Positions 7,763-43,300 of a stretch of DNA of 64,000 nt are shown here, piece by piece. The position numbers were made by a program, and so were the translations under genes. Under the pieces are notes generated by a model that had not been told where the DNA came from, ran no database searches, and saw nothing but the letters and a program-made list of their open reading frames with translations. The stretch comes from an uncultured Gammaproteobacteria bacterium (GTDB lineage Bacteria; Patescibacteriota; Microgenomatia; UBA10105; UBA927): positions 44,302 to 108,301 of the forward strand of contig CAZNKB010000002.1 in NCBI GenBank assembly GCA_964573695.1, given 5' to 3'. How positions within the stretch are numbered: the stretch's first letter is position 1; each line of letters starts with the position of its first letter.

Positions 7763-9025
7763 TTATTTGGTCTCGTGTACAGTCGGAAGCTTCTTGCCTT
7801 TAAACAGCACGCCCCAATCGTTAATTTTCCCGTTCTCGCCCGCCGGGGGATTGATCCGTGAGGCCTGTAGGACATAGACGACCGGATCGGGTACCTTGTT
7901 CTTTTCGCGGATTTTGTCTTCCCAAAGCTCCAACATGGCCAAGCCGCCACCCAAATAGATACGGGTTTCATTTTTCCCCGACCCGTACATCCGGACATGA
8001 GGATTGATCCTTCCTTCGCGGCCTGTGGATAGCTTGTCCCCCATGTCGCCAACGGTAAATAATCCGAAGTCTACCATTTCGGGCTGTGTGTTGATGAGAT
8101 AATTGGAGCCGATGGCTTTGGTACCCAACCCGTAAGAGAGCGCCCCCACACGCACGAGTAGCGGCACTTTGCGATCCAGCGCACGTTTGATCGCGATTGT
8201 AATACCCTGTGTGGATGCCACTGCCACGCGTATTTCCTCCAGCGTGTGCTTGTGTGGCTTACCCATAGCGTCGTCGACCTCCTGATCTCCGATTATGGTG
8301 GCCCCTGATGCCAGACAGTCGTCAAAACGCGTGAGTCGCGCGTATTCATAAAGCCCCAGGCGTTTGCGTACCGCTGTGGCTCCCTTGGCAGAAAATCCTC
8401 CGAGACAATCGCTTACTGCCTGACGGTATCGCTGTTTCTTTTCGGCAGTCATGTCGGAATCATTGCCAAGAGTCGTAAGCTCACGCATCACCGGCGACAG
8501 GGAGCCGTTTCTGATTTCGATGATAATCTTACCTTCGTCGTCATTTTTGATCGCCCGCATAACGGGAATCTCTTCCTGGGGAGACACAATTTGGGCCGAA
8601 TCCTGTGAAGATATCGCCAGTACCGCCTCACGGTCGGTGTACAACCTACCGTTACCGTCTTCGCAGACGAAATTCAGACTTCTCAGGCCTTCGATAAACT
8701 TTTCGGCTGACAACCGTGTCCCTTCAATCGTCTCGACAAGCAGCGGCCCAAATAATACCTCTGCGTCTCCCGTATTGGGTTTGCCGTATTTTTGGGCTCC
8801 GTGCCACTGCTCCGGGATGCGTATGGTTTCTCCGTCTCCCGCAACTCTGATACGCACGTTTGCCGGTTTCCACTGGTCGTTAAAGTGGGCAAATATCTCC
8901 GGCACGGATATGTCCCGAAGGGATTTGCTCAGCTCTCGTGCCGTAGGCGGCTCCGGTGGGCGTGTAAAAATTTCGGTGAGATGTGAGGCTACATGAGGAG
9001 CGCGGCGTGGTGATTCTATACCCAT
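7763..9025 (-). CDS. Conserved hypothetical protein, 420 aa, family not identified
   Basis: Long ORF of native composition. Tested mentally against RuBisCO-like, thymidine/AMP phosphorylase, HMG-CoA reductase and TldD/PmbA with no convincing match. Confidence 0.7.
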   Translation of the reverse strand: MGIESPRRAPHVASHLTEIFTRPPEPPTARELSKSLRDISVPEIFAHFNDQWKPANVRIRVAGDGETIRIPEQWHGAQKYGKPNTGDAEVLFGPLLVETIEGTRLSAEKFIEGLRSLNFVCEDGNGRLYTDREAVLAISSQDSAQIVSPQEEIPVMRAIKNDDEGKIIIEIRNGSLSPVMRELTTLGNDSDMTAEKKQRYRQAVSDCLGGFSAKGATAVRKRLGLYEYARLTRFDDCLASGATIIGDQEVDDAMGKPHKHTLEEIRVAVASTQGITIAIKRALDRKVPLLVRVGALSYGLGTKAIGSNYLINTQPEMVDFGLFTVGDMGDKLSTGREGRINPHVRMYGSGKNETRIYLGGGLAMLELWEDKIREKNKVPDPVVYVLQASRINPPAGENGKINDWGVLFKGKKLPTVHETK

Positions 9026-9169: not shown

Positions 9170-9772
9170 ATGCGAATCCTGGGAAACGCGCAGAAAATAC
9201 AATGCATTATGTTAGGAGAAATACCATTTCACACGCAAGAAACCCGTCGCAGCCGCAAATCCAGAAGTGCTTCCCAATACCGGGATGTCTTGCCTGAATA
9301 CGGCAAGCTGCTAGGACGGCTTTCCCGACACCTCATGTGGCATCACGGTGACGGCGTACTGACGCTGGGCAATTCGGCGGAAAACATGTGGAAAGACATG
9401 CGCTCGATGTCTCCGCTACAATCATTTGCCATACTGCCGCCTGCAGGGCATATCACCGGAGAAATTGCCTATGAACTCTATACCGGAAACCTTTTCGATA
9501 TGGAGTCCGCAGTCCGCCGATCCGGCATACTGTTTCCTGGTAGGGTGATTGTCGAAGATTATGCAAGAAGAGCTAGTAAAATCATCAAATTAGACGGGCT
9601 CTTTAAACACTTGGGATTTGCCGTGCGATTTGCCGTTCTCTATGCGTCACCTCATGCGTTATGGGAATTTGCCGATTATGGTATCCCCGTCCACGTAGTG
9701 GCGACCAAAACGAACCAAAGGCTTCAGGATTTGCTTGCTACACGGAAAACTGACCGTTGGCACAAGGAGTAG
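9170..9772 (+). CDS. Hypothetical protein (200 aa; alternative start at 9209)
   Basis: ORF with TATAAT 15 nt upstream. No motif recognised. Confidence 0.5.
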   Translation: MRILGNAQKIQCIMLGEIPFHTQETRRSRKSRSASQYRDVLPEYGKLLGRLSRHLMWHHGDGVLTLGNSAENMWKDMRSMSPLQSFAILPPAGHITGEIAYELYTGNLFDMESAVRRSGILFPGRVIVEDYARRASKIIKLDGLFKHLGFAVRFAVLYASPHALWEFADYGIPVHVVATKTNQRLQDLLATRKTDRWHKE

Positions 9773-10737: not shown

Positions 10738-12087
10738 TTATTCGTATCTTCGACTGTCCTCAATAATATGTTTAATTATCTCAATCTTGTCTTTTGTTAA
10801 ATCGATTGTTTCCTTCATGCTTTCCCACCACATTGCTAATGATATGGCGCTATATATTGACGTCAACGTTTCGTATGATCCAATTCGTATTCTAGATTTA
10901 TGAGATACTAGATTTCTATATTTTCTAAGTTCTTTAAGGTTCTCGTTTATTATTTTTGGGAAAATTAGGTTTGCCCCAGAACTGTTGAGGTTCGAAATGC
11001 TGATGTCTAACATAGATTTTTGGTGGTTAGTATAGTTAATTGATTCTCGGATAAGATCAAATATTTGATTATGTTCATGTGCACTTTTTATCTTTGTTTT
11101 TTTGGCTTCTTCAAGTTTTTTGTATAAATCCTCTAAATTGTATTTTTTGAATGAGTTAGTTTTTAGTATGCTGCTGGTTTCACGACCTAATAAGCTATAC
11201 AAATCTCCGAATGATGCCTCTCTTGAACAAGCCTTTCTAAATAAGGTTTCGTAAATTTGGGTGAGGTATTCTTCTGCAATAATTCCCGAGTCGGATATAG
11301 AGTATTTATATTCCCTATCGAAGTAGTTTTTGATAGATGCTTCGATTAACTTATTTAGCCTTTTATCTTCGAGAATATGCTTATGTAAATAATTTAGTAC
11401 CTTAAAATAAGGAAGAAGGATTTTGTTGTCAGGTGAAAATACTAGCTGTAGTTTGAAGTTGGTAATTTTGCCAATTTTGATTAAAAACTTTGCAAAATTT
11501 TCAAGACCTTCCTTTTCAGCCGAAAAAAATATAATTTTTTGATTTTCACTGCCAGGGATAGGGAATAGTTCTAAAAATATTACATAGCTCTCTTTAAGTT
11601 TAAAAACGCCCCCTTTTCTGCTAATGTAATCAGAAAAATTATTATAATAAAGGTTGTCTTTGAATAGTTGGAAAGCTTCTGAGTAGTTCTTTTTAATATA
11701 CTTCTTGTTGATTCTTTTTAAATTCTGTCGAGCGACAAATTCCTCAACTGGAGAAATTTTCTCTTCGTTTACATCTTTAAGAATCGAGTCTTCAGATGAT
11801 TCACAACTAATCTTTCCGTTCACAAGATATCTGAATAGGATAAAAATTGACTCAATATCCCAAAATGCTCGAGATAAATACTTTTCATTAACTGGATCAG
11901 ATTTTATACGTCCTCGTTTTTCGGTTTTTGAAAACCTCTTTAATTGTGTTGTTAAATCGTTTTGTAAGTACTCTGTTATTCCTTCTTTCTTCAAGTAAGT
12001 AATATCCAAAAACCACATTCCTTGTTTTGTTGGATATTTTAGATAATTAATTAACTTTTCTTGTTGTTCTTTATTAAGTGTATTCAT
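10738..12087 (-). CDS. Hypothetical 449-aa protein with a C-terminal HEPN-like Rx4H motif (possible Abi-type RNase toxin)
   Basis: AT-rich ORF. The C-terminal helix ...NLKELRKYRNLVSHKSRIRIG... fits the HEPN Rx4-6H consensus. The N-terminal 380 aa is unrecognised. Confidence 0.65.
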   Translation of the reverse strand: MNTLNKEQQEKLINYLKYPTKQGMWFLDITYLKKEGITEYLQNDLTTQLKRFSKTEKRGRIKSDPVNEKYLSRAFWDIESIFILFRYLVNGKISCESSEDSILKDVNEEKISPVEEFVARQNLKRINKKYIKKNYSEAFQLFKDNLYYNNFSDYISRKGGVFKLKESYVIFLELFPIPGSENQKIIFFSAEKEGLENFAKFLIKIGKITNFKLQLVFSPDNKILLPYFKVLNYLHKHILEDKRLNKLIEASIKNYFDREYKYSISDSGIIAEEYLTQIYETLFRKACSREASFGDLYSLLGRETSSILKTNSFKKYNLEDLYKKLEEAKKTKIKSAHEHNQIFDLIRESINYTNHQKSMLDISISNLNSSGANLIFPKIINENLKELRKYRNLVSHKSRIRIGSYETLTSIYSAISLAMWWESMKETIDLTKDKIEIIKHIIEDSRRYE

Positions 12088-12202
12088 ATTAACTTACAAA
12101 AAAACTGCCCGTGAGGGCAGCTCGTGTAGTATACATCAAAACAATTATTTAACAAACTAATCATGTCATGTTTGGCGTGGCAGCTCTACAGAATCTACTT
12201 AT

Positions 12203-12247
12203 GTACTCCTGCCGGATGAATAGCAGCGCTAAGAAGCGCTCCGAACC
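12203..12247. repeat. att-like direct repeat copy 1: tRNA-Glu 3'-end fragment plus extension
   Basis: GTACTCCTGCCGGATGAATAGCAGCGCTAAGAAGCGCTCCGAACC is about 90% identical to 14585-14631. Followed at 12268-12296 by a palindromic hairpin flanked by A- and T-tracts. Confidence 0.6.
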
Positions 12248-12352
12248 CGCCTTAAAGCGAGGTTCATCGTCGTGAGGTACTAAAAACCGGCACCGGGCCG
12301 GTTTTCTTAGTACAGGTGTTGGGACGAAATTGGAACGACTCTTACTAGTCTC

Positions 12353-12949
12353 TTATAACGAATTGACTAGCATTTTTAATTTTGTAATATTTCTACAATA
12401 ACTGAAATAGTTTAATTCTGTCACCCTAAATGTGTCTGAGGATATTTTTGCATTTCTATTTCTAAAATTTAATGTTAAATCGTCATTATATGAATATTGC
12501 TTCTTTACTAGAATATCAATGATTTCATGAAATTTTCTATTGCGACTATATTCTGATATTTTATCTTTTAATATCGAAAGTAAGTTACTTTGAGCTCTCA
12601 GCTTTAGGATAATTTTGTTCGCCACTAATTTTGTTAGAATTTTATCTTTTAAGAAAACCTCTTCGACACCACGATGCAATTCACTAAGATCTGACTCAAA
12701 TTTCACACAGTCAGCTATTAAAATATCCTTCTCCATGCGTTTATTATTAATTTTTTTATCAAGATAAAAGGGAATATAAATAGCTATAAAAAATGTTAGA
12801 AGGAAGCTGGCTATATCACCAACAGCTAATTTAGTATCAAAAGTTAAATAAGGGAAGTCTCTTATTACAACTCCGAGCGCAATCCCTATTAGAAGAAAAA
12901 GAAGGGTTATTAAAACTTCAGCACTAATAAATCCTGTACCACTTTTCAC
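12353..12949 (-). CDS. Membrane protein, 198 aa, with two N-terminal TM helices and a helical cytoplasmic C-domain. Third gene of the cassette.
   Basis: GTG start overlaps the stop of the upstream gene (GTGA). Hydrophobic segments ISAEVLITLLFLLIGIALGVVI and IASFLLTFFIAIYIPFYL. Confidence 0.6.
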   Translation of the reverse strand: MKSGTGFISAEVLITLLFLLIGIALGVVIRDFPYLTFDTKLAVGDIASFLLTFFIAIYIPFYLDKKINNKRMEKDILIADCVKFESDLSELHRGVEEVFLKDKILTKLVANKIILKLRAQSNLLSILKDKISEYSRNRKFHEIIDILVKKQYSYNDDLTLNFRNRNAKISSDTFRVTELNYFSYCRNITKLKMLVNSL

Positions 12950-13290
12950 TGTGTATTAGTTTCGTCAATTATGCTTAATATAGAAGTGATCAAAAGAGGC
13001 TCATCATTACTTATTAATTTAATTTTTTCTTTAATTTTATTCTTGTCTTTATACTCTTTTGTTAATCTAGTAAAAACTTCTGAGGTGAACGAGGAAGCAT
13101 AACCAAAAGTTCCATCCAAATCTAGATTTAATATCTTAAATTCATCATTCCATACCAAATCAACTTTTGGTTTAAGAACGTCTATAAAGAAAGCCTCTCC
13201 AGAATTAGGTCCATCAGACCTATATCTTGCTCCAGGGTATTTACTAAAATCAGTTGCAATTTTAACCGTAATTTCTTCAATCGAAGTCAT
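12946..13290 (-). CDS. Small STAS-like (DUF4325-type, anti-sigma-antagonist-like) protein, 114 aa
   Basis: ATG at 13288-13290 lies 1 nt after the TAA of the upstream gene. ...ILNLDLDGTFGYASSFTSEVF... parallels the SpoIIAA DLSGVxFMDSSG phospho-Ser loop and matches the DUF4325 pattern. The track ORF adds 31 spurious N-terminal residues. Confidence 0.6.
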   Translation of the reverse strand: MTSIEEITVKIATDFSKYPGARYRSDGPNSGEAFFIDVLKPKVDLVWNDEFKILNLDLDGTFGYASSFTSEVFTRLTKEYKDKNKIKEKIKLISNDEPLLITSILSIIDETNTQ

Positions 13291-13291
13291 A

Positions 13292-14365
13292 TTAAGGCAC
13301 CAACTCCCAATAGTACATTGTGCCATTAAACATAGCACCAAGGGACTCAACTGTATCAGGCATATTATACCCGATCTTAGCAATTACATCATTACTCAGC
13401 ATAGTAAAGTGTTTTATTTGTTGATCTGATTTAACCCACTTGTATATGTTATATAAACCATTTCCTCTCTCCTCCAATTTTGTTGATGATCTATTAACTC
13501 CTGAAAATATTTTAACTAATGTAGCGCGATTGTCGGTAAGATTAATGACTGACTTAAAAAATGCGCTAAGGAGATTACGCTTGTATTTTTCTTCAAGGGA
13601 GTCAAAAATCCCAATACCTAAATCTAAAAAGCAAAACTTAGTTATTTTTGTTTCAGGCTCTTTATAAGCTAATAACCACCAGTTATATATTTTAATATTT
13701 TTATCTGGACTAGCATGGTTCCAACTATTAGACATGCACTCGATCAACATTGTGTAACTCTTCTGTCTCATGGGATCAACTTCTCCGAATGTGTGGTGGA
13801 CTGCCGACTCGACAATTTTTCCTGCTAATTCCGACTCAACTTGTTCTTTTGTAATGCGATGGATAAGTTTGTCTACATACTCCTGATCGGGGTTATAGTC
13901 TTTATTTTGAGATTTTACAAAATCAAAAAATCCTGATCTTGCAAAAACCTCTCTGATTTTTGCATCTTTTGGTGAAAAACCTTGCAGTGGTGTGTTACTA
14001 GTACAACTATCATCATTTATGAAAGCACAAAGATATGTAATAGTCTCAGGACCCATCACAACGACGTCTTTTAAGTCAAAAATAACAGGTGTTTTATTGC
14101 GTAAAAGATTTTTTGCATGTTGGAAAAAATTAATAACAATAAGCGGATCATTAAGTAGAGAAAATGTAGTCGGGGCTACACAATTTTCATGATCACTTTT
14201 TTGAGGGTGATCGACAAACTTCTTTACTCTAGCCCTATTAACTTGCTTGCTTAAATTCTCATACCTCAATTTTTTCCTTAATAATTTTCGTTCTCTATTA
14301 TGGTGCGCCTTCCTGATAGGGGAACGTTTAAGAAATTCGCGAAATTTATTTCCTCTTTTTTTCAT
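13292..14365 (-). CDS. STAS-domain / GHKL (HATPase_c) ATPase fusion protein (about 357 aa from ATG 14363-14365), anti-sigma-factor-kinase-like
   Basis: STAS: VIFDLKDVVVMGPETITYLCAF ... FSPKDAKIREVFARSGFFDFV, compare SpoIIAA IVLNLEDLSFMDSSGLGVIL ... ISPAVKRLFDMSGLF. GHKL boxes: N-box ECMSNSWNHA, G1 FLDLGIGIFD, G2 RGNGLYNI. The track start (TTG at 14527) translates GC-rich palindromic att DNA, so ATG 14365 is preferred. Confidence 0.65.
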   Translation of the reverse strand: MKKRGNKFREFLKRSPIRKAHHNRERKLLRKKLRYENLSKQVNRARVKKFVDHPQKSDHENCVAPTTFSLLNDPLIVINFFQHAKNLLRNKTPVIFDLKDVVVMGPETITYLCAFINDDSCTSNTPLQGFSPKDAKIREVFARSGFFDFVKSQNKDYNPDQEYVDKLIHRITKEQVESELAGKIVESAVHHTFGEVDPMRQKSYTMLIECMSNSWNHASPDKNIKIYNWWLLAYKEPETKITKFCFLDLGIGIFDSLEEKYKRNLLSAFFKSVINLTDNRATLVKIFSGVNRSSTKLEERGNGLYNIYKWVKSDQQIKHFTMLSNDVIAKIGYNMPDTVESLGAMFNGTMYYWELVP

Positions 14366-14390
14366 ATTAGCTTTGTAATCTATCAAATGG

Positions 14391-14399
14391 ATTATATCA
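14391..14399 (-). promoter_or_regulatory. Extended -10 element (TGATATAAT) for the cassette operon
   Basis: Reverse complement of 14391-14399 is TGATATAAT, about 26 nt upstream of ATG 14365. Confidence 0.3.
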
Positions 14400-14584
14400 T
14401 CGGGACAAAATACGTTATTAAGGAGCGCCGCCTCTTGATGCGCGTCAGGGGTGAGTCCTCGAACCCGCGACAGCCCTTGACGCGCATCCGTGTTCCATAA
14501 TTGTTCTAGAGGGAGGATGCTTTCCAAGGGAAGCCCGGATTTGGTTTGAATTAGCTTTACACCTCGGAGGTGTAGGTACCAGGA

Positions 14585-14631
14585 GTACCCCCTTGCCGGA
14601 TGAATAACAGCGCAAAGAAGCGCTCCGAACC
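14585..14631. repeat. att-like direct repeat copy 2: tRNA-Glu 3'-end fragment plus extension
   Basis: GTACCCCCTTGCCGGATGAATAACAGCGCAAAGAAGCGCTCCGAACC. The first 17 nt match the 3' end of the intact tRNA-Glu at 14776-14792. Confidence 0.6.
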
Positions 14632-14658
14632 GGATTTGGTTTGACTACAAACCACTCA

Positions 14659-14693
14659 CCAGCACTAATGCTCGAAGACTCGCAAAGTGCTGG
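14659..14693. repeat. Hairpin element H1 (CCAGCACT...AGTGCTGG), paralogous to H2 at 14906-14950
   Basis: 8-bp perfect stem between the shared flanks CACTCA and ACTGCG. H2 has CCAGCAGT...ACTGCTGG, a compensatory C:G to G:C change that preserves pairing. Confidence 0.4.
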
Positions 14694-14736
14694 ACTGCGA
14701 ACCGGTAAACCGGTTCAAATCGCCAAGCGAATATTC

Positions 14737-14771: not shown

Positions 14772-14775
14772 TGAG

Positions 14776-14849
14776 TACCCCCTGCCGGATTCGAACCGGC
14801 GATTCACGGGCTGAAAACCCGTTGTCCTAGGCCGCTAGACGAAGGGGGC
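14776..14849 (-). tRNA. tRNA-Glu (anticodon TTC)
   Basis: Reverse complement GCCCCCTTCGTCTAGCGGCCTAGGACAACGGGTTTTCAGCCCGTGAATCGCCGGTTCGAATCCGGCAGGGGGTA. Cloverleaf with G1-U72 and anticodon loop UUUUCAG. Confidence 0.85.
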
Positions 14850-14905
14850 AATATTCACTTGTTAACGAATCCGGCAAGCCGGATTGCCGAGATTATTCGG
14901 CACTC

Positions 14906-14950
14906 ACCAGCAGTAAGTCTCGCTTCGCTTGCTCCACTCATCAACTGCTG
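14906..14950. repeat. Hairpin element H2 plus tRNA-Glu 5'-like fragment (GCGCCCCCTTCGTTGCCGG at 14985-15003 on the minus strand)
   Basis: See H1. An additional partial copy of the tRNA-Glu 5' end lies at about 14980-15003. Confidence 0.35.
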
Positions 14951-15122
14951 GACTGCGCCTCGATTCCGATGTTACCGGGGACCGGCAACGAAGGGGGCGC
15001 TACTACCAAGTATTGTACCAAATATCAGGGACAAAAAAAATAACGCCCGAAATCTGTACCAAACAGCACTCCGCATATTTGCGGACTACGTGTTGGCCCA
15101 AAAAGGGCGTTATACCATATCG

Positions 15123-15819: not shown

Positions 15820-17085
15820 ATGGAACGAAGCCCGGAACCCCTACCGAAACGGCGATACGAATCCCCACTTCACCTCACCTGGGAAGTCAAAGACCCGGTC
15901 AAATTTACCGAGCTTGAGGACGTCGTCACAAAGCAACATAAACTCATGACGAACCCTCCCGCCGTATTTCGGGGCGGAGGTGTATTCTCCCCGACTTCAA
16001 AGGATTTGGCGCTTCCCTATCGTCATTTTCTCGCTTCGGAGCGCCCTTTTGTCGTCATGCCGGTAACGACGGAAGCAGGCGGCAAGCTTACGGACGTCAT
16101 CCACTTCCCGACGTCTACGGAAGAATTGAGATTCGATGCCAATCTAGCGGCGTATAAGCAGCACCTCGGAGACTATGTTTCGGGTCACTGGAACAAAGAA
16201 GGTATGTCACCTATCCCGAAGACGACTGATATCACCACGCTTCCTGACGGACGCTATGTGACGACGGAGGAATACCGCGGCTATACCAAAGGCATCGGCA
16301 AAGGCCCGGGAGCTCTTGGTATCCATGAGCTGGATATCCAGCATGTTACACCCGACGATATGCGCCATATCGTACGGACACTCAGCAGCGCCACTCCTAG
16401 CTCCAGAGACTTCTACAGTTGGATAAGAGAAAACAACCGCGTATTGCCGGAGGAAAGTTTACTCAATCCCGCTAACCCCAAGACGGCACTGCGCGGACAG
16501 GAATGGTGGTCTTCGCCCGGAGCCCCGCAGGAAACGAGATCCCAGGAACTCGCCAAACAGCTCAAACCCCTGGAAAAGGATTTCCATGCGGTCGATCCGG
16601 CTATGGATCCATACCAAAAAATTGTGACCCTCATCGAGAACAATATGCAGATATTTCTTCATCAGAACGGACAGGCGGATCACCCTGAGCTCGTCGCAGA
16701 GCCGGTCGTCGTCCACGGCGCGCTCTATCCGGATAACATACAATTGTCGCGCCAGAGAGGCACCCAGGTTCCCGACGTTACGATACTTGGCGGAGATCGC
16801 GCACACATCGGCGTACGGGGAGAAATGATCGACTGGCTAGTGACTGCCGCTGCAGAATCTCCCGCGCATCAAAAGGCCATGATTGAGGAATTCATCGCTC
16901 TTCACCCTTCCGAATCAGACAGGCGTGGGCTGGCGATGCACGTGCTGTACCGCTCACTCAAAGAAGCGCCCTGGTTTGCCAAACACCGGCCCTCGGCTTA
17001 CCGAAACCTCATCCGACTCAGTTACGATATCCTGGAAGGAAATGGTATCTGGAAGGACGTCAATACCCCATACAACGCCAAATAA
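15820..17085 (+). CDS. Protein-kinase-like / aminoglycoside-phosphotransferase-fold protein (421 aa) with a non-canonical catalytic loop
   Basis: VVVHGALYPDNI aligns to the APH/CHK catalytic loop HGDLHPGN, with D replaced by A. ...GEMIDWL... aligns to the IDWE metal-binding motif. Confidence 0.55.
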   Translation: MERSPEPLPKRRYESPLHLTWEVKDPVKFTELEDVVTKQHKLMTNPPAVFRGGGVFSPTSKDLALPYRHFLASERPFVVMPVTTEAGGKLTDVIHFPTSTEELRFDANLAAYKQHLGDYVSGHWNKEGMSPIPKTTDITTLPDGRYVTTEEYRGYTKGIGKGPGALGIHELDIQHVTPDDMRHIVRTLSSATPSSRDFYSWIRENNRVLPEESLLNPANPKTALRGQEWWSSPGAPQETRSQELAKQLKPLEKDFHAVDPAMDPYQKIVTLIENNMQIFLHQNGQADHPELVAEPVVVHGALYPDNIQLSRQRGTQVPDVTILGGDRAHIGVRGEMIDWLVTAAAESPAHQKAMIEEFIALHPSESDRRGLAMHVLYRSLKEAPWFAKHRPSAYRNLIRLSYDILEGNGIWKDVNTPYNAK

Positions 17086-19031: not shown

Positions 19032-19475
19032 ATGAATGACCAACTCTCAAGTGAGCCAACACAAACTTCCGACACAGCAAGTGCCGACACAGTACTGGAA
19101 TTAGAGTCAATGATCAAAAATTCCGTTGCGACGATAGACCGCAACAAAACCGAGCTCAAAAAACTCAAAGAGATGCTCGAAAGCGCTCTTTTAAACGACG
19201 AGCCCTACCGCCTAGCGAGCGAAAAAACCAAAGAAGCCGCCAAGGAAAAAGGCAAAGCGAAAATGAACGTCATGCAAAACCCGGCAACCAAACAAATCGC
19301 AGACAAAGTCAAAGACATGACCCAGGAAAACAAAGATCTCGTTTCCGCACAATCCGAATACCTTCGCGAATACGCGAGGCTTTCGGGAACGAACGAGATC
19401 GAAGGCGAAGACGGCGAAGTAAGAGAAATTATCTACGTCGCTAAATTGGTCAAAAAGGCCAAACGAAATTCATGA
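19032..19475 (+). CDS. Hypothetical acidic coiled-coil protein (147 aa), translationally coupled (ATGA) to the downstream glycosyltransferase
   Basis: ORF; the stop overlaps the start of 19472. Confidence 0.55.
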   Translation: MNDQLSSEPTQTSDTASADTVLELESMIKNSVATIDRNKTELKKLKEMLESALLNDEPYRLASEKTKEAAKEKGKAKMNVMQNPATKQIADKVKDMTQENKDLVSAQSEYLREYARLSGTNEIEGEDGEVREIIYVAKLVKKAKRNS

Positions 19476-21307
19476 AACCCAATCGGCCCACAGTGGGCAA
19501 ACCGCCAAACTCACCGAGACTACCTTGGTGGTATTTTGCATTCGCGGCGGCTTTTCTCATACTCGCGACTTTTTTCCGGATTTGGCTTCTCGATCGGATC
19601 CCCACGGGTATCGTCGGGGATGAACTGGATTATGTGCTGAATGCCAAGGCGATCTATCACACCGGCGGCAGCATCATTACGAAAGACTGGTCCCCTCTCT
19701 CTCTTACTACCGTTCCCGATGAAATTCCCAAAGCGGAATTTCCCTATGTCATAAGTCTGCCGTTTGTAGGCCCGTTTGGCCTTTCGCTATTTACCGCACG
19801 CGTAGGATACGCCATAGTGAGCGTCCTCTATGTCCTTCTCGTCGCTTTTTGCGCTGCTGTATTTTTTTCTCCCTGGGTGGGGCTTACTGCCGGATTTATG
19901 GCAGCCATAAATCCGTGGAGTATTTATTACGGCAGGACGGCCTACGATGTCCCGATCGCCATAACCGGCTACATTGCAGCTCTTGTTATCCTCGCCAAAT
20001 GGAAAGGTCCCAAGCTGCTCCTGGCTCTTATCCCGCTCTTTATCGCGTTTTATAGCTACATAGGCACCAAAGTACTGTTCCTTCCGTTCGTGATCGTGTC
20101 GGTAGCCGGCGTGTGGCTCACCATACAAAAGCGGCGGGAGACTATATGGCTTGCCATTGTGGGAATCGTAGCGACGTGCATGTTCGGATATTTCGTCGTG
20201 CAGTTGCGTACCCTCGATGCCAACGAACGGGTCAACCAGCTGTTTACGCCATTTAACCAAACGGTGGTGAACGACGTAGACGGTCAGCGCCGTATGACTC
20301 TTGCGTCACCGCTTACCCGGATTTTTGCCAATAAACCCGTCGTGTATACCAAGACCGCACTTATCAAATTTTTTGGAGCATTTTCCCCCTCGATATTATT
20401 TACCAACGGGGAGGGAATCGCGACATTTTCACTCTGGGAACACGGACTGTTTTATCCCGTAGACGCGTTGTTTTTACTCATCGGCATCGGCGTATTGTTT
20501 GGTTCCTCACCCTCGCTGCTTGTATTTTTTGGCATCCTTATCGCCCTCTCTACGCTTCCTTCTGTGCTCTCTACCGAAGGCACGACCTACGTACACCGCT
20601 CGTCGCTTATGTATCCCTTGCTCACGATACTTATAAGCTACGGCATCGTATCTTCGGCAGAGCGTATCAGGAGTTCCTGGCGCAAGTGGTTTGTAGGAAT
20701 TACCATAATCATATACCTTGTCGCGGTCATCAACTTTTCGTATCTGTATTATTTCCGGTTCCCCTATTACAACTCCGAAGCATTTGGTCTGAGTCAGCGC
20801 ATCTATAGCCGGTATATGACCCTCGCCAACGAAAAAGGGATCCCCGTCATAAATATTTCCAGTTCTTCGGTCGGATATTTCCGGAATTTTATTTTCTACA
20901 ACAATATCCCGTCTCAGGAGACTATTTCTGCTATCCGCAAGGCGTTCGAAGACAAATCCTTTACCTGGGGGCTGTCGTCTTTTTCGGACAGCTGCCCGAC
21001 GACTGCCGATATACGTTCCGGCGACACCTCCTATATCCTTTCCGATACATCGCCCTGCAAAGAATTTTTCATCAAAAAACCCATGCTCGCGATCCCGACA
21101 CTCGCCGACGGGGGTTCGCTCTATATGATTTTTAACGACCGCGTCTGCGGACAATACGCACTGTCCAACTACCCTTCGGGATTTACGATAGGCGATTTCG
21201 ACGTGGAAAAGCTTTCGGAGAAACAATTTTGCGAGCGATTTATCATCCGCTACAGCCAGCCGCTCTACATGCCTCAGGACAAAAACGGCACCTGGGTCAC
21301 CCCGTAA
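19472..21307 (+). CDS. PMT/ArnT-family (GT-C, GT39/GT83-like) membrane glycosyltransferase, 611 aa
   Basis: About 11 TM helices. Periplasmic-loop DE motif (IVGDELDYVLNAKAI) typical of dolichyl/undecaprenyl-phosphate-sugar transferases. Confidence 0.8.
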   Translation: MKPNRPTVGKPPNSPRLPWWYFAFAAAFLILATFFRIWLLDRIPTGIVGDELDYVLNAKAIYHTGGSIITKDWSPLSLTTVPDEIPKAEFPYVISLPFVGPFGLSLFTARVGYAIVSVLYVLLVAFCAAVFFSPWVGLTAGFMAAINPWSIYYGRTAYDVPIAITGYIAALVILAKWKGPKLLLALIPLFIAFYSYIGTKVLFLPFVIVSVAGVWLTIQKRRETIWLAIVGIVATCMFGYFVVQLRTLDANERVNQLFTPFNQTVVNDVDGQRRMTLASPLTRIFANKPVVYTKTALIKFFGAFSPSILFTNGEGIATFSLWEHGLFYPVDALFLLIGIGVLFGSSPSLLVFFGILIALSTLPSVLSTEGTTYVHRSSLMYPLLTILISYGIVSSAERIRSSWRKWFVGITIIIYLVAVINFSYLYYFRFPYYNSEAFGLSQRIYSRYMTLANEKGIPVINISSSSVGYFRNFIFYNNIPSQETISAIRKAFEDKSFTWGLSSFSDSCPTTADIRSGDTSYILSDTSPCKEFFIKKPMLAIPTLADGGSLYMIFNDRVCGQYALSNYPSGFTIGDFDVEKLSEKQFCERFIIRYSQPLYMPQDKNGTWVTP

Positions 21308-22963: not shown

Positions 22964-25513
22964 GTGATACGTATTCCTCATCTTTCGCAGGCAAAAGCAG
23001 AATCTCTGCTTCGCACATACGGGCCGAACGCCTTGAGTGAGCAATCCTCGCACTCTCCTCTTACGATATTTATCGATCAGTTCAAGAATATCCTCGTCGT
23101 CATGCTTATGGGGGCCGCAGGTCTTTCATTTTTTCTCGGTGACGCATTGGACGGAGCCCTCATCCTGACGATTCTTGTGCTCAACGCGCTGTTAGGGTTC
23201 GCCCAGGAATTCAAAGCAGAGAAAGCCCTCTCTGCACTCAAACGCATGACCGTCGGCATGGTAAAAGTTCTGCGGGACAATAAAATGATTGAACTCCCGA
23301 GTACGGATATCGTCCCGGGAGATATTATCTTTTTGGATGAAGGAGATAAAGTTCCGGCAGACGCAACACTGGTTGAAGCGATCCATATTGAACTAAACGA
23401 GGCAGCGCTTACCGGCGAATCGCTCCCCGTCGAGAAAAATACCACAACAGATCCTGAAATATTCATGGGTACAATAGTTTCGAGAGGGCGTGGTACTGCC
23501 AAAATCACAAAAACAGGCATGCGCACAAAATTTGGCTCCATTGCGACCAAATTGGGAGAAATCACCGACGAAGAAACCCCACTCGAGAAAAAAATGGCGA
23601 CACTAGGCAAACAACTCGGGATGGTCGCACTGGCATGTTCGAGTATTATTTTCGGATACGGGTTTATTCGCCATGATCCGCTATTTGAGTCACTCCTTAC
23701 CGCAATAAGCTTGGCTGTCGCTGCCGTTCCTGAGGGATTACCTGCAGTCGTCACCATTGCTCTTGCTGTGGGAACACAACGTATGGCCCGTCAAAAATCC
23801 ATACTTCGCAAGCTCTCGGCTATTGAATCGTTAGGAAGTGTCACCGTTATTGCCACAGATAAGACTGGCACGCTTACACAAAATGATATGCGCGTGACAG
23901 ACGTATGGGCTGCCGGCAAAGCCTACAAATTAGAAGGCCTCAAGAAAAAAGTCCCTCCGATTCTTAAGAATCTTATTATCACAGGAGTACACTGCAACAA
24001 TGCAAGTTTGTCTCATTCGTATCAGGACGAAAAACCGACAGTCGTCGGAGACAAAACCGAGGGATCGCTTTTGCTGTTTGCCCACGATCTTCATGTATCG
24101 ACGGACGAAATACGTAGCGAAGGATCGCTTGTCGAAGAATTTGCGTTTACTTCCCTGCTTAAAATGATGACCGTCGTCATCAGAAAGGGAAAAAAGTCAT
24201 TCGTATACTCAAAAGGCGCACCAGAGGCAATATTGAATATATCCACTCACTATCAAAAAGGAAATGACGTATATCCACTCACCTCTGCCGCGCGGAAAGA
24301 AATAGAATCAGAGTTCCGGGCGTTCGCCGCAAAAGGCCTACGCATGATCGCACTCGCCAAACGGGATGTGATATGGAAAAAACAATCCCGAGAAGAAATA
24401 GAATCGAACCTTACATTTCTCGGATTTGTTGGAATTGCTGACCCGCCGCGCCCCCAGATTGCCGATGCCGTACACCTCGCTCAAAAAGCCGGGATCACAA
24501 CCGTTATGATTACCGGAGACAATGAATTGACTGCACAAGCCATTGGTGAAGAAATTGGGCTACTCAAATCCGGCGATCAGGTACTCACCGGAGCCCAGTT
24601 TGCTTCCCTTTCAGATGCAGAGGCGACTCAATCACTTGCGAAAACTCGTATTTTTGCCCGGACGACACCGGAGCAAAAACACAGAATTGTGCAGCTGCTT
24701 CAGCGCATGGGACACGTTGTCGCAGTCACGGGAGACGGGGTAAACGACGCCCTGGCACTCAAACAAGCAGATGTCGGAGTAGCTATGGGCATCACAGGAA
24801 CCGACGTCGCCAAAGAAGCCTCGGACATGATTATCACGGACGATAACTATGCGTCGCTCGTAGTAGCTATCGAAGAGGGTAGAACGATTTTTGACAATAT
24901 CAAATCCACCACGAAATATCTGATCGGGTGTAATTTGGGTGAAATAGGAGCTATCACTGGCGGAGTTCTTCTCGGGTGGCCGTTTATCTTAAGCCCGCTT
25001 CATATTCTGTATGTAAACCTCGTGACAGACGGCTTGCCCGCTATCGGGCTCTCCCTTACTCCAAAGCAGGGGGACATCATGGCCCAAAAGCCGCGTATGG
25101 AAAAAACGATATTCAATAACCACGACGTCTTTTGGTTTATAGAAGTCGGCATCATAACGACTCTTGCTACGCTTATTTCCTTTACGATTGGATCGGAAAC
25201 GAGCGTCACATTAGGCAGGACACTGGCGTTTCTGGCGATAATACTCGCGCAGCAGTATATTTTTTATGATATAGCAAGCCGAAACAAAACTATTCTCCAA
25301 CTCTCTGTACGCCGTTTCCCTTGGATCGTATTGCCCGTCATCATTATGATCGGGCAGGTGCTCCTTTTGGAAGTTCCCGCATTTGAACACATCTTCCAAA
25401 CCGTTGCACCGCCGATCATATTTTCCGTACTGAGTGTCGGGATCACAAGCACCTTGCTGATCGTTTCCGAGCTGAGGAAAAAATACGGCAAGCATTTGTA
25501 CTATCATCACTAA
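22964..25513 (+). CDS. P-type cation-transporting ATPase (type IIA Ca2+/Mg2+-ATPase-like), 849 aa, GTG start
   Basis: DKTGTLT phosphorylation motif, TGES actuator, [20 protein letters not shown] hinge. N-terminal [19 protein letters not shown]. Confidence 0.92.
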
Positions 25514-33977: not shown

Positions 33978-35399
<1,422 letters not shown>

Positions 35400-36254
35400 T
35401 TATTCAACTGCCAATCTGGCGGTGACCATATCGGTAATTTCGTACGTGATTTTTTCCTGTCGTGCTTTGTTGTATTGGAGCGTCAGGTCGTCCTGAAGCG
35501 AGTTGGCATTGTCTGTTGCGTTGTGCATGGCGATCATCCGTGCGGAATGCTCAGCCGCCTCAGCCTGAAGCACGGCATCGCGGATCTGGTTTTCTACGTA
35601 GTGCGGCAAAAGCGCGGCAAACACTTCTTCGACACTCGGCTCGATCAAAAATTCATACGTCCCTTCGTCATCCTGGGCTGCCTCCCCGGTTATGGTTAAG
35701 GGCAATATGGTCTTCATCCTTGGAATCTGCTTAGAAACGGACAAAAACTCATTTGACACCAAATCAACCGCATCGTACGACTCGGTCAAAAACTGCTCAG
35801 TCAGATACGCAACCAGCGCGGGTACCACGCGCTCCCAAGGTGTTGTGTCAGAAAAATCCGCTTTTACCCCATGACCAAGCCGGGTAACGAAATCGGCACC
35901 CTTTTTGCCTATCGAGACGACATCATAAGAAGCATTGTGCGGGTACTGTTTCATAAAAAAACGAAACAGCGAGGTATTGAGCCCTCCGCACAGTCCTTTG
36001 TTGGTGGAAAGGAGTACGACGAGACGTTTTCCGGTCAACGGCGGAGTCTGAAGCAATTTATGATTGCGAAAGTCGGTGCGTTTGGCCAGTCGCATCACCA
36101 TTTCGTAAATTTTCTGGGCGTAAAGTTTGCCGGATAGTGCGGCAGCCTGTGCCTTTTTCATTTTGGCAGCGGCAACGAGTTCCATGGCTTTGGTGATCTG
36201 TGCGATGTTTTTCGCACTTTTGATTCTTCTTTTGATAAGACGGATGTTTGCCAT
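35400..36254 (-). CDS. atpG: ATP synthase F1 gamma subunit
   Basis: MANIRLIKRRIKSAKNIAQITKAMELVAAAKMKKAQ. Confidence 0.93.
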   Translation of the reverse strand: MANIRLIKRRIKSAKNIAQITKAMELVAAAKMKKAQAAALSGKLYAQKIYEMVMRLAKRTDFRNHKLLQTPPLTGKRLVVLLSTNKGLCGGLNTSLFRFFMKQYPHNASYDVVSIGKKGADFVTRLGHGVKADFSDTTPWERVVPALVAYLTEQFLTESYDAVDLVSNEFLSVSKQIPRMKTILPLTITGEAAQDDEGTYEFLIEPSVEEVFAALLPHYVENQIRDAVLQAEAAEHSARMIAMHNATDNANSLQDDLTLQYNKARQEKITYEITDMVTARLAVE

Positions 36255-36256
36255 AC

Positions 36257-37765
36257 TTACTTAAATGACTTTTTGAATTCCGAAATCGCCGTTTCGAGAC
36301 CTTTTTCTATTTCAGGGGACAGCATCTTTTCTTTGGCGATGGCTCCCAGTACTTTACGATGCCTCGCGTGCATAAAACTTAAAAATTGGCTCTCAAAATC
36401 CGTCACGCGGTTGACGGGAATCTCATCGAGATATCCTTTGCTCCCTGCCCACATAATCGCGACTTGTAACGAAACGGAAACCGGCTGGAACTGCCCCTGT
36501 TTCAAAAGCTCCATCATGCGGGATCCGCGGGCGATTTGTTTTTTGGTTATATCGTCGACATCCGAGGCAAATTGGGCAAATGCCGCCAAATCCCTAAATT
36601 GTGCCAAATCGAGACGCAAATTCCCCGAGACTTTTTTCATCGCCTTTATCTGTGCGCTGCCTCCGACGCGCGATACGGACAATCCGACGTTGACTGCGGG
36701 GCGCTGCCCGCTGTTAAACAGGTCGCTCTCAAGGTAAATTTGCCCGTCGGTAATGGAAATAACGTTTGTCGGAATATAGGCGGACATATCTCCTGCCTGT
36801 GTTTCGATGATCGGAAGTGCGGTAATGGAACCTCCTCCGCGAGCCTCGGAAAGTCGGCATGCACGCTCGAGTAACCGGCTATGGAGATAAAACACGTCTC
36901 CCGGATATGCCTCACGCCCGGAAGGCCTGCGGAGCGTTAAGGATATCTGTCGGTAGGCCCAGGCATGTTTGGACAAATCATCGTAGATCACAAGCACGTC
37001 TTTACCTTTGTCCATGAAATATTCGCCGAGTGCGCACCCTGCATAAGGCGCCAAATATTGGTACGGCACCGGGTCGCTTGCCGTAGCTGCCACGATAATC
37101 GTGTGCTCCATGGCATTGTGCTTTTCCAAATCGGCGATGACCTGCGCTACTCTGCTGGTTTTTTGGCCAATCGCGACATAAATACAGATCACGTTTTCCC
37201 CTTTTTGGTTGATAATCGTATCCACGGCAATCGCTGTCTTTCCCGTGCTTCGATCCCCGATGATAAGCTCGCGCTGACCGCGCCCTATGGGAATCATCGC
37301 GTCGATTGCCTTGATGCCCGTCTGAAGCGGCGTCGTAACCGGCTGCCGGTGTACGACCCCCGATGCGATCTGTTCCATGGGATAACGGGTCTTGGAGGGA
37401 ATTGTTCCTTTGGCATCGATTGGCTCTCCCAGCGGGTTTATGACGCGACCTATGTACGCCTCCCCGACGGGAACAGAAAGCAGCGTACCGGTGCTTCGCA
37501 CTTCGTCGCCTTCCTTAAGCTTGAGGTAATCCCCAAGCACCATAATACCGACCTCTTCTTCCTCGAGGTTGACGACCACGCCCTGTATACCATTTGCAAA
37601 CGTCACGAGTTCAAGATATTTCGCTCCCGGTAATCCGGAAGCCTTGGCGACGCCGTCTGCCAGGGTGGTAAGGTATCCTACGCGTCTGGCCTTGGCGCCA
37701 GTTTCGAAGCTTTCTAATTTTTTGACAAGTTCTTTCGCAATGAGGGATGCTGTATTTGTTTTCAT
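36257..37765 (-). CDS. atpA: ATP synthase F1 alpha subunit
   Basis: [21 protein letters not shown]-loop. Confidence 0.97.
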
Positions 37766-40310: not shown

Positions 40311-43300
40311 TTATGGCACCATGCGCCCGGTGCCCGGGTCTATGCCCCGCACGTCGTCTGCCAGCATCACCAGACGGTCGTCTTTCTGATCGACTTTGCC
40401 GGTAATCACTACCACGCTGTCGCGCACCCAGTGCCTCACGCTTCTTGCGTAAATCTTGGGAAAAATCACCACCTCAATATTTCCCGTCAAATCCTCAAGG
40501 CGGATAAACGCCATTTCGCTACCGCCGTTTTTGGTGATAATTTTTTTCACTTGGGCGACTAAGCCTATCACCTGGATGCGGTCACCCACGCGCTCCTCCG
40601 TGACTTGCGAAATAGGAGTCATCGCGTCTTTATTGCCGAGCTTTTCTAAGGTTCTCTCCAGAGGGTGCGCGGTCAGGTAAAAACCCAACAGCTCCTTTTC
40701 GAGCGCGAGAAGCTCATGGCTTGCAAGTTCCGGCAATTGCGGCAAATGATCCAACACGGTCGACTGCTTGGCATCACCCGAATCAAAGAGTCCGGTCTGT
40801 CCGATCGAGGCTGCTTTTCGATCCTTGTGTATCTGTTCCAGCGCGGATTCCACAATAGAAAGTAGCGCGGCCCGGGTGCCAAATGCCTCCATAGCCCCGG
40901 CCTGGATAAGACTTTCCAGTGTCTTTTTGTTGACCTTGGACACATCTACCCGGCGCAAAAAATCCGAAAATGTCGCAAATGAGCCGTCTTTTCGTGCACG
41001 CAAAATGCTCTCTATAGCAGCTTCTCCGACGTTTTTGATTGCCGACAATCCAAAACGGATGCGGCCGCTTTCTATGGAAAATTCGATATCAGACATATTG
41101 ATATCCGGCGGCAACAAAAATATCCCGGTCCGCTTGCACTCAGCCACGATCATGGCGATTTTTTCACTTCTCGTATCTCCGGTATTGGCTCTCGACTCGG
41201 CGGTGAGGACTGCCGTCATGTATTCAACCGGATAGTTAGCCTTAAGATATGCGGTCTGGTAAGCGATAACGGCATAACATGCTGCGTGTGCTTTGTTAAA
41301 TCCGTATCCGGCAAACGGCTCGATAAGGTGAAAAATTTCTTCGGCCTTGTTTCTGGTCATGCCGTTTTTGACACATCCTTCCACGAATTTTTCCTGCTGT
41401 TTTTTCATTTCCGAAGGGATTTTTTTACCGACGGCTTTACGAAGCTTGTCCGCATCTCCCCAGGAATATCCGGCCAGTGTAATAGCCGTGAGCAACACGT
41501 CATCCTGATAACAGATAAGCCCGTATGACTGGTTAAGCACGTCTTTGAGTCTCGGATCCGGGAATGTAATACTCTCGGGGTTATTTTTGCGCGAAATATA
41601 CTGCGGAATGACCTGCATTGGCCCCGGACGGAACAATGCCACCATAGCCATAAGATCAAATATCGTCGTCGGCTTGAGCTCCTTGATATATCGGCGCATA
41701 CCGGCCGACTCCAGCTGGAACACTCCGGTGGTTTCCCCCAAAGAAAGCATTTCAAATGTCTTTTTGTCCGTAAGCGGTATATCGTACACGTCAACAACTT
41801 TGCCTTTTACCTCCTCGATAAACCTGGTGGCTGTAGTCATGATCGTTAAGTTCCGAAGTCCCAAAAAATCCATTTTCAGAAGTCCTACCCCGTCCTCTCC
41901 TACGGTATACATATCGTACTGGGTGATAACCCGGTCTCCTTTGCTCTCGCGCTGGAGCGGGGTGTACTCGACCAGCGGCTTATCGGCAATCACGACTCCA
42001 GCCGCATGCACCGACGCGTGCCGGGCTACTCCTTCGAGTTTACGGGCCACGTCGAGCAACCGCTTGGTCTCGGGTTCGGTCCGATACGCCGCAGAAAGTT
42101 CCGGCGTCATATCGATCGCTTTGTCGATCGTCATCCCGAAACCCTGTGCTCCCGGGGGGATGAGCTTGGCTATCCGGTCGGGCTGGATGTAAGGCATACC
42201 CAACGCTCGTCCCGCATCCCGCACTGCTCCCCTGGCCTCCATGGTTCCGAACGTGATGATCTGCGCTACCTTGTCATCCCCGTACTTTTGGGTGACGTAG
42301 GCAATCACCTCGTCCCGCCGGTCATCCGCGAAATCCAGATCGATATCGGGAGGACTCGGCCTGTGGGGATTGAGGAACCGTTCAAACGGCAACCGGAAGA
42401 AAAACGGGTCAATACCGGTAATACCCAATACGTAGGAAATCACGCTGCCCGCAGCTGATCCACGGCCTGGACCAACTCCGATCCGCTGACTTTTGGCCCA
42501 GTTCACGAAATCCGAAACGATCAAAAAATACGTAGAGTATCCCTTTTTGGTGATGATATCGAGCTCATAGTTGATGCGTTCCCTGATCTCATCGGTTACC
42601 TTTTCATACCGATTGCCCACCCGCTCATCGATGAGTAATCGTAAATATTCTTCCGGCGTTTGCCCCTCCGGAACCGGGAACCTTGGCAATATCCACTTGC
42701 CCACAGAAAGCGTGATATTGCACATCGCTGCAATTTTTACCGTGTTTTCGATTGCCTCTGGATATTGGGCAAAGAGTTCGCTCATTTCGTCGGGACTCCG
42801 CAGGTAAAAATCCGGAGAACCCATCATCGACAACGGGCGGTTCTTTTCCACAATGGTTCGCTGGGTCTGTACGCACAGCAATATTTCTTGCGCTTCCGCA
42901 TCATCGGGCCTCACATAATGCACGTCATTGGTCGCGACAAGCGGCAACCCCAACTTGCGGGAAAGCGCCACCAATTTTTCGTTTACTTTCTCAATCTCCG
43001 GTATATTCGGATGCTTCTGAAGTTCTATATAATAATGATCGGGACCAAAAAGCTCTGCGTACTTTTGGGCTACCTCCTCAGCTTCTTTTAGCTTATCCTG
43101 CATGAGGAGTTGCGGCACCTGGCCGGCCAAACACGCGGACAGACAAATAATCCCTTCGTGATGCTTCGTCAGCAAATCCCAATCGATCCGGGGTTTGTAG
43201 TAGTATCCGTCCAAGTGGGCGTACGTTACGAGCTTAAGAAGATTCCTATAGCCTACATCATCTTTGGCAAGCAAGACGAGGTGATAGGGGTCCGTATCGA

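Follow-up and report, generated by a model that had tools for sequence, protein, structure and literature searches.

In a 64,000-nucleotide stretch of contig CAZNKB010000002.1 from an uncultured bacterium (hereafter the window) we analysed a cassette of three head-to-tail minus-strand open reading frames (ORFs), which encode a protein with a STAS domain and a GHKL kinase-like domain (gene 1), a DUF4325 protein (gene 2) and a small membrane protein (gene 3). We give slightly better than even credence to the hypothesis that the cassette is a kinase-gated, toxin-antitoxin-like module of the CapK/VapK type with a membrane protein as its effector, borne by a small integrative islet and most likely serving in phage defence or in addiction to the element. 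What we observe is a defined gene architecture, characteristic motifs and predicted folds, strict co-inheritance of the three genes, a mobile context, homology of gene 2 to the antitoxin VapS and a probable, mainly transitive homology of gene 1 to CapK/VapK.

Architecture and folds of the three proteins

The genes are tightly packed, with a single base between the stop codon of gene 1 and the ATG of gene 2 (TAA-N-ATG) and with the GTG start of gene 3 inside a GTGA overlap with the stop of gene 2. Both junctions are read in the sequence as an earlier description made from the letters alone (the initial annotation) had given them. The frame of gene 1 is open further upstream to a TTG at 14527; we place its start at the ATG at 14365 because the homologues are ~340-360 residues long and begin with MKK. 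The span initially assigned to the cassette, 12353-14399, is correct at the end of gene 3 and too long at the other side, where 14399 has no start codon and is the first base of the candidate promoter element TGATATAAT (Table 1).

Gene 1 has no match in Pfam, NCBIfam or PADLOC at E ≤ 1, and neither its single sequence nor its profile found a meaningful match among the sequences of the PDB. Because the libraries gave no match, the GHKL and STAS assignments were made from the fold and from motifs. An AlphaFold2 model computed from a 33-sequence alignment, with a predicted local distance difference test (pLDDT) score of 85 and a predicted template modelling score of 0.82, consists of a 47-residue basic helix, an α/β domain comprising residues ~58-147, a linker and an ATPase domain whose lid (residues 292-301) is disordered. 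The N box (E209-x3-N213-x3-H217-A), the G1 box (D248-x-G250-x-G252) and the G2 box (R300-G301-x-G303) are invariant in 33-50 homologues. Together, fold and motifs support the predicted fusion of a STAS domain to a GHKL kinase of the anti-sigma type, and the fusion named in the initial annotation is upheld on these grounds rather than by library hidden Markov models (HMMs). Its remark that the STAS segments align well to SpoIIAA was too strong: the identity is ~10%, a likeness at the fold level only, and the matched STAS and GHKL folds in general share ~10-13% identity with gene 1. A fold search of BFVD returned generic GHKL matches only. A fragment of a histidine kinase was considered as the identity of gene 1 and rejected, as neither a DHp/HisKA domain with a phospho-histidine nor a partner response regulator was found.

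The first 45 residues of gene 1 carry a median net charge of +15 in 43 full-length homologues, and the basic N-terminal helix to which they belong may bind nucleic acid. At position 106, the canonical phospho-Ser index of the STAS fold, Pro is present in 30 of 50 family members and Thr in 11. Because of the Pro at this index, the STAS domain in cis looks like a regulatory or pseudo-substrate domain and not like a substrate. Position 105 is mostly Thr or Ser in the relatives, and the Thr/Ser-Pro loop present in 45 of 50 family members resembles S48-P49 of VapS; judged from the sequences, most relatives, though not the window copy, might autophosphorylate this domain. A word-indexed search retrieved 36 relatives of gene 1, and a profile search found 3005 representatives of 50%-identity clusters at E ≤ 1e-3, 897 of them at E ≤ 1e-30.

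Gene 2 belongs to Pfam PF14213 (DUF4325, “STAS-like domain”) with 33.6 bits against a cut-off of 23, in agreement with its first description as a standalone STAS-like protein with a serine loop at the phospho-acceptor site. DUF4325 is its only Pfam match: STAS and STAS_2 do not match gene 2, nor does HATPase_c_2 match gene 1. The Pfam searches proposed along with the initial annotation thus yielded DUF4325 for gene 2, but neither HATPase_c nor STAS for gene 1. In the loop G63-Y-A-S66-S67-F68 the residues G63, S67 and F68 are invariant, while position 66 is Ser or Thr in 45 of 46 sequences. Conserved as well are the motif PGAR-x3-DG-x2-SGE-x-F near the N-terminus and the tail FKS...P...I at the C-terminus, which includes S94 and I108. 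No DNA-binding domain was found in the 114 residues of the protein. The best PDB match of its profile is “Escherichia VapS” (9z7o_A, E 0.046). The PHROGs match of gene 2 is limited to positions 339-439 of phrog_5816, a family of 441 positions, and suggests that a DUF4325 domain may form the C-terminus of a larger phage protein, possibly a kinase-STAS fusion.

Gene 3 has two hydrophobic segments, as have 40 of its 44 homologues. In the model (pLDDT 81) the first transmembrane (TM) helix comprises residues 10-28 and is followed by a 14-residue loop, a long helix of residues 43-100 and three more helices. The second TM segment (~43-62) is the first third of the long helix, and the rest of the protein forms a four-helix bundle. 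Basic residues after the TM segment, clearer in relatives with a single TM helix, suggest that the helical domain is cytoplasmic, and this placement would therefore bring it within reach of gene 2. The two TM helices and helical cytoplasmic domain noted initially agree with the hydrophobic segments and the model. No Pfam, NCBIfam or PADLOC family and no PIN domain matches gene 3, its profile found only coiled-coil noise in the PDB, and neither library profiles nor fold comparison revealed transporter-like features. A word-index homology search retrieved gene 3 alone, and further homologues were obtained through an alignment from the related loci.

Conservation of the cassette and relation to VapKSC

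A locus census, in which one genome per species was scanned, gave 49 loci in Patescibacteria/candidate phyla radiation (CPR), Bacteroidota, Gamma- and Deltaproteobacteria, Acidobacteria, Fibrobacterota, Spirochaetota, Bdellovibrionota and one Woesearchaeota bin (L009). A homologue of gene 2 lies directly downstream of gene 1 in all 45 loci with enough sequence, and in 42 loci the HMM finds a homologue of gene 3 after gene 2. Loci L043 and L049 are HMM-negative, yet an overlapping two-TM ORF of ~205 residues stands at the place of gene 3, its sequence being too diverged; a further sequence (L040) ends before this position. A two-TM protein of ~200 residues is thus found after gene 2 in 44 of the 44 loci that reach that far, and the 4-nucleotide overlap of genes 2 and 3 is retained in ~26 loci. 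Because the same three genes occur in the same order in 49 loci of unrelated phyla, the cassette is more than a chance arrangement. According to an all-against-all BLAST comparison of every ORF within 8 kb, conservation is limited to these three genes.

The sole other recurrent neighbour is a large serine recombinase, which lies 1-7.4 kb away in variable orientation in 10 of the 49 loci and suggests that the cassette is carried on serine-recombinase mobile elements. The loci in question (L002, L004, L012, L019 and six others) are mostly from Patescibacteria, and their recombinases have Resolvase and Recombinase domains and a length of ~540-577 residues. The 150 nearest flanking proteins match 139 Pfam families and are heterogeneous, with some resolvases, transposases, ParE and restriction enzymes among them. 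Neither a sigma factor nor a PP2C phosphatase recurs among these 150 proteins or occurs among the window neighbours tested; the initial annotation had likewise noted that the module contains no sigma factor. PADLOC matches of the neighbours comprise components of restriction-modification systems and MADS-like proteins. Two copies of the cassette are decaying: in L041 (7840-9472) three separate ORFs stand in the place of gene 1 and no more than 78 residues of gene 3 are left, and in L028 (9205-9776) gene 3 is in two pieces.

Distant relatives were found by tblastn with gene 1 at ~24% identity. Three such loci, on a plasmid, in a prophage and in a phage, encode a kinase, a DUF4325 protein and a small TM-anchored helical protein in that order. 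The first is Leptospira interrogans plasmid p4 (L050; NZ_CP043897.1 48555-50383) with a 335-residue kinase, a 106-residue DUF4325 protein and a 166-residue TM protein, which RefSeq labels “ATP-binding protein”, “STAS-like domain-containing protein” and hypothetical, respectively; its third gene scores 19 bits against the profile of gene 3. There, a nucleotidyltransferase (MNT)/HepT toxin-antitoxin pair follows ~320 bp downstream, and a protein with a 7TM histidine-kinase N-terminal domain is encoded upstream. The second locus belongs to a Helicobacter prophage, whose kinase reaches 24.6 bits with Pfam HATPase_c_2 (SpoIIAB/RsbW family), under the cut-off of 27.4, and the third to Marinobacter phage AS1, beside a Cro/CI switch. 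Gene 1 itself matches PHROG phrog_3364 with 118.9 bits.

Could the cassette have a housekeeping function, regulating some membrane process in the manner of MlaB- or SLC26-type STAS control, and take no part in conflict or defence? STAS domains do regulate transporters, SLC26 and MlaB are among the STAS fold matches of gene 1, PADLOC offers no match, and many neighbours are ordinary genes. Opposed to this are the patchy spread over CPR, Bacteroidota, Proteobacteria, Acidobacteria and an archaeon, with different neighbours in every genome, the position of the window copy on a low-GC, tRNA-adjacent and repeat-bracketed islet, the recombinases nearby, the plasmid and prophage copies, the decay of some copies (L041 and L028) and the lack of transporter-like features in gene 3. 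We regard a housekeeping role as the least probable of the explanations considered here.

The first two components of the cassette are shared with the anti-phage operon vapKSC, which was described together with the controller CapK/CapS by Chambers, Rani, Min, Villa and Corbett (EMBO J 2026; PMC13373217), so that the initial statement that the cassette is not a described system has to be amended. In the work of these authors, CapK (a fusion of a helix-turn-helix (HTH), a STAS and a GHKL domain) is switched on by single-stranded DNA (ssDNA) and phosphorylates CapS (STAS followed by a winged HTH) on S54, whereupon adjacent immune operons are de-repressed. Mutation of CapK N218 strongly reduces the phosphorylation of CapS and prevents induction of the reporter. 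The vapKSC operon is a toxin-antitoxin system composed of VapK (STAS-GHKL), the STAS antitoxin VapS with its phospho-site S48, and the PIN toxin VapC, which is released when VapK phosphorylates VapS. It gives ~2 log protection against phage Bas42, and 36% of the 289 vapKSC operons lie ≤10 kb from defence genes. In both systems the STAS protein binds the output, CapS the DNA and VapS the toxin VapC (VapS-VapC structure, PDB 9Z7O); a conserved Ser/Thr at the STAS phospho-site is the reported signature of CapS and VapS, and an ssDNA groove is described for CapK/VapK (PMC13373217). In the literature on DUF4325, on anti-phage STAS-GHKL proteins and on partner switching in abortive infection we found no description beyond that of Chambers et al.

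For the comparison, the published sequences were taken from Appendix Table S2 of that paper as optical-character-recognition text of the PDF. VapS is a DUF4325 protein with 62.7 bits, and VapK has no Pfam match. The profile of gene 2 aligns to VapS with 16.9 bits and with the loop in register, so that S48 of VapS corresponds to S66 of gene 2; S54 of CapS corresponds to S67. Among the published proteins the profile of gene 1 fits VapK best, with 14.9 bits and in register from the G1 box to the C-terminus, and it also aligns the N and G1 boxes of CapK in register, with CapK N218 equivalent to N213 of gene 1. With the profile of gene 1, the kinase of the Leptospira plasmid reaches 233 bits, and in a single-sequence search it hits CapK with 23.0 bits; it therefore provides a significant transitive homology link between the kinases.

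The cassette and VapKSC have the same operon order of kinase, STAS protein and effector (in the cassette a putative one), with a first gene that combines STAS and GHKL domains and lacks a Pfam match. Like gene 2, VapS is a DUF4325 protein of ~115 residues that has a conserved Ser/Thr as its STAS phospho-site and ends in a short tail, and both systems are mobile and patchily distributed. On the other hand, the third gene of the cassette encodes a protein with two TM helices and a four-helix bundle in place of the VapC/PIN nuclease, and the gene 3 HMM has no match to VapC. Moreover, gene 1 has an extra basic N-terminal helix of 55 residues, and the kinase sequences are only remotely similar. CapK/CapS resembles the cassette in that a STAS-GHKL kinase with an aligned N-box Asn precedes a STAS protein, but gene 1 lacks the N-terminal HTH and gene 2 the C-terminal winged HTH. 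Downstream of the pair the cassette has a fixed membrane protein and a terminator-like hairpin, whereas CapK/CapS is followed by a variable immune operon. In comparison to SpoIIAB/SpoIIAA and RsbW/RsbV, to which the identity is ~10-13%, gene 1 carries a STAS domain of its own, and the cassette is without an associated sigma factor or PP2C phosphatase.

Proposed mechanism of the switch

In our preferred reading, that of a kinase-gated toxin-antitoxin-like module, gene 3 would be the effector, and its cytoplasmic four-helix bundle would be bound and kept inactive by gene 2, which would be made just upstream of gene 3 by translational coupling. Gene 1 would be a signal-activated serine kinase. 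Upon a stress or infection cue it would phosphorylate gene 2 on Ser66 or Ser67, phosphorylation would split the complex of genes 2 and 3, and free gene 3 would oligomerise or otherwise damage the membrane, which would lead to growth arrest in the sense of abortive infection or addiction. By analogy, the cue may be a nucleic acid such as ssDNA, held between the STAS and kinase domains or by the basic N-terminal helix; we propose such a cue because of the ssDNA groove of CapK/VapK and the very basic helix of gene 1. The toxicity of gene 3, its complex with gene 2, the phosphorylation, the trigger and the defence phenotype are what we infer within this scheme. The logic of sensor, phospho-switch and membrane effector suggested in the initial annotation is thus the one that we favour as well.

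In CBASS, Pycsar, retron and type III CRISPR systems, among others, small proteins with one or two TM helices and a cytoplasmic regulatory domain serve as terminal effectors, a build to which gene 3 in its mobile cassette would conform. No sequence similarity and no specific fold similarity of gene 3 to such abortive-infection effectors was found with PADLOC, the PDB profile search or the fold search. The mode of control would also be different, by release from a phosphorylatable inhibitor and not by a nucleotide second messenger.

A classical partner switch would assign the roles differently: the GHKL domain of gene 1, in the manner of SpoIIAB or RsbW, would sequester the cytoplasmic domain of gene 3, and unphosphorylated gene 2 would displace gene 3 from it. 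Either the ATP/ADP ratio or the amount of gene 2 supplied would set the switch, and a collapse of energy during infection would free gene 3. We consider this arrangement improbable, although it deserves some weight. No PP2C-type phosphatase or fourth gene is conserved, hence a reversible switch would be left without a reset enzyme. The nearest characterised relatives bind their output through the STAS protein and not through the kinase (CapS-DNA, VapS-VapC), and the tight translational coupling joins gene 3 to gene 2 rather than to gene 1. With neither a phosphatase nor a sequestered partner conserved, “kinase-controlled toxin-antitoxin” is an apter label than the “partner-switching” cassette of the initial annotation.

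In another scheme, which appears quite unlikely to us, the kinase itself would be the effector. Gene 3 would act as a sensor or anchor that responds to envelope damage or phage entry, gene 2 would relay the signal, and gene 1 would phosphorylate host or phage proteins or, in the way of an anti-sigma factor, sequester a transcription factor. The four-helix bundle of gene 3 can be compared with sensor domains, but those compared are periplasmic and lie between two TM helices, while the bundle of gene 3 follows the last TM helix and is more likely cytoplasmic; besides, the likeness is generic and includes de novo designed bundles. The scheme is without precedent in the CapK/VapK family. It also has to accommodate the presence of the cassette in a Woesearchaeota bin (L009), and to our knowledge archaea have no sigma factors.

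Several observations weigh against our reading of the cassette as a kinase-gated toxin-antitoxin-like module. The direct similarity of gene 1 to VapK is weak (~15 bits; hhalign E 7.5e-5, probability 62%), and for CapK the hhalign probability is 2.7%; judged at this level, the kinase link to VapK/CapK would rest on transitive homology and shared architecture. The residues that contact ssDNA (W68 in CapK, F54 in VapK) are not mappable onto gene 1, and the supplements of the paper gave nothing in this respect. In the loop of the STAS domain in cis, residues 105-106 (window 14053-14048) are Gly-Pro in the window copy. The fold of gene 3 is a generic helical bundle, similar even to de novo designed ones, and its sequence is weakly conserved, a combination that is compatible with a pore or a scaffold. 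At E ≤ 1, neither genes 1-3 nor the 449-residue gene next to them match any model of PADLOC-DB v2.0.0, and a strict pattern scan of IMG/VR gave no relative. Several “defence” matches of the neighbours are UvrA-like or generic ABC ATPases, and AAA_21/ABC-type neighbours are the likely source of the PADLOC matches to AriA, NsnB and AbiLi. The neighbourhood census called for in the initial annotation showed a constant three-gene order and no recurrent sigma factor, but the association with defence genes is soft and suggestive only.

Beyond the window, it is possible, although we rate it as somewhat short of even, that the cassette represents a widespread unnamed defence or addiction family, in which a DUF4325 serine-phospho switch directly gates a membrane-damaging effector and the basic-helix kinase senses a cue other than ssDNA. 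Judged by the kinase profile, the proposed family would comprise ~900 50%-identity clusters at E ≤ 1e-30, with members in CPR/Patescibacteria, Bacteroidota, Proteobacteria, Acidobacteria, a DPANN archaeal bin, a plasmid and prophages. In that case the kinase-STAS (“K-S”) pair would act as an exchangeable sensor module of general use, coupled to nuclease as well as membrane outputs.

Genomic setting and significance

The cassette lies in a low-GC islet with 30-37% GC over ~10750-14500, compared to ~50% in the flanks, next to a tRNA-Glu(UUC) gene (Table 1), as the initial annotation had recognised. This tRNA gene is the likely integration target of the islet. Two copies of a 38-nucleotide direct repeat, 95% identical and spaced by 2384 nucleotides, flank the cassette on both sides. 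By eye, the repeat resembles the T-arm and the acceptor 3' end of tRNA-Glu with a 23-nucleotide hairpin inserted, and the tRNA-end-like repeats around the cassette look like traces that an integration at the tRNA has left. There is no integrase. In an Rfam scan of the islet, tRNA-Glu was the sole match, and the tRNA-like repeats were not recognised as RNAs. The sequence upstream of the tRNA-Glu gene is partly duplicated downstream of it (14653-14699 and 14901-14957; repeat families D4 and D7, 82-86% identity). Together with the 38-nucleotide repeats, this duplication suggests successive insertions, each of which regenerated a leader and a pseudo-tRNA end.

Table 1. Coordinates of the cassette, its domains and the surrounding elements in the window
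Feature	Position	Strand	Evidence or remark
Gene 1, 357-residue STAS-GHKL protein	13292..14365	-	ATG 14365, TAA 13294-13292
Gene 1 residues 1-55, long basic helix	14201..14365	-	helix 6-52, pLDDT ~90; 21 K/R vs 4 D/E
Gene 1 residues ~58-147, predicted cis STAS domain	13925..14194	-	Pro106 at canonical phospho-Ser position
Gene 1 residues ~165-357, predicted GHKL (Bergerat) ATPase/kinase domain	13295..13873	-	N, G1 and G2 boxes
Gene 2, 114-residue DUF4325 (STAS-like) protein	12946..13290	-	ATG 13290, TGA 12948-12946
Gene 3, 198-residue membrane protein	12353..12949	-	GTG 12949, TAA 12355-12353
Candidate promoter element TGATATAAT, extended -10-like	14391..14399	-	by eye; 26 nucleotides upstream of gene 1 ATG
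Terminator-like hairpin AAAACCGGC-CCGGT-GCCGGTTTT	12283..12305	-	read from sequence
38-nucleotide direct repeat, left copy	14594..14631	n/a	repeat search, family D1
38-nucleotide direct repeat, right copy	12210..12247	n/a	repeat search, family D1
tRNA-Glu(UUC)	14775..14849	-	ARAGORN; Rfam tRNA 56.8 bits

The TGATATAAT element is absent from the list of the consensus scanner and has no good -35 element nearby; it is a motif only. The terminator-like hairpin, with a perfect stem of 9 bp followed by Ts, lies ~45 nucleotides past the stop of gene 3 and is not in the scanner list either. The sites reported by the promoter and terminator scanner were no commoner than in shuffled sequence, and the elements seen by eye were missed by it.

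Just beyond the right direct repeat, in a second low-GC segment, an orphan protein of 449 residues is encoded on the minus strand (10738-12087). It has no match in Pfam, PADLOC, NCBIfam or PHROGs, and an R-N-L-V-S-H motif (Rx4H, HEPN-like) was seen by eye near its C-terminus. Possibly the orphan belongs to a tandem islet as an accessory or defence gene in its own right. We considered it as a fourth component of the cassette and rejected it: the gene never accompanies homologues of gene 1 and lies outside the direct repeats. Long ORFs without any Pfam match also occur near the islet at window positions 7763-9025, 9170-9772, 15820-17085 and 19472-21307. Ordinary genes of the window encode DnaE (40311-43544), subunits of the ATP synthase (33978-37765) and a P-type ATPase (22964-25513). 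The host probably belongs to a lineage that is little characterised.

The principle of kinase/STAS control and its three-gene toxin-antitoxin form are already known (2026). What appears to be undescribed is the class of putative membrane-protein effectors that replaces the PIN nuclease, the breadth of the family, with hundreds to thousands of sequence clusters and many of them in CPR bacteria, and its absence from Pfam and PADLOC. If our reading is true, the kinase/STAS control of CapKS and VapKSC would take in a membrane protein as a second class of effector, unrelated to the first, which would favour the view of the kinase-STAS pair as a modular sensor to which different toxins can be connected. 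A role would then be available for many proteins that lack annotation at present, since no Pfam family covers genes 1 and 3 and gene 2 is known only as a DUF; many such proteins are found in CPR bacteria, whose defence systems have been little explored. The cassette would also offer a simple three-gene system in which to study how phosphorylation of a STAS serine frees a bound partner.

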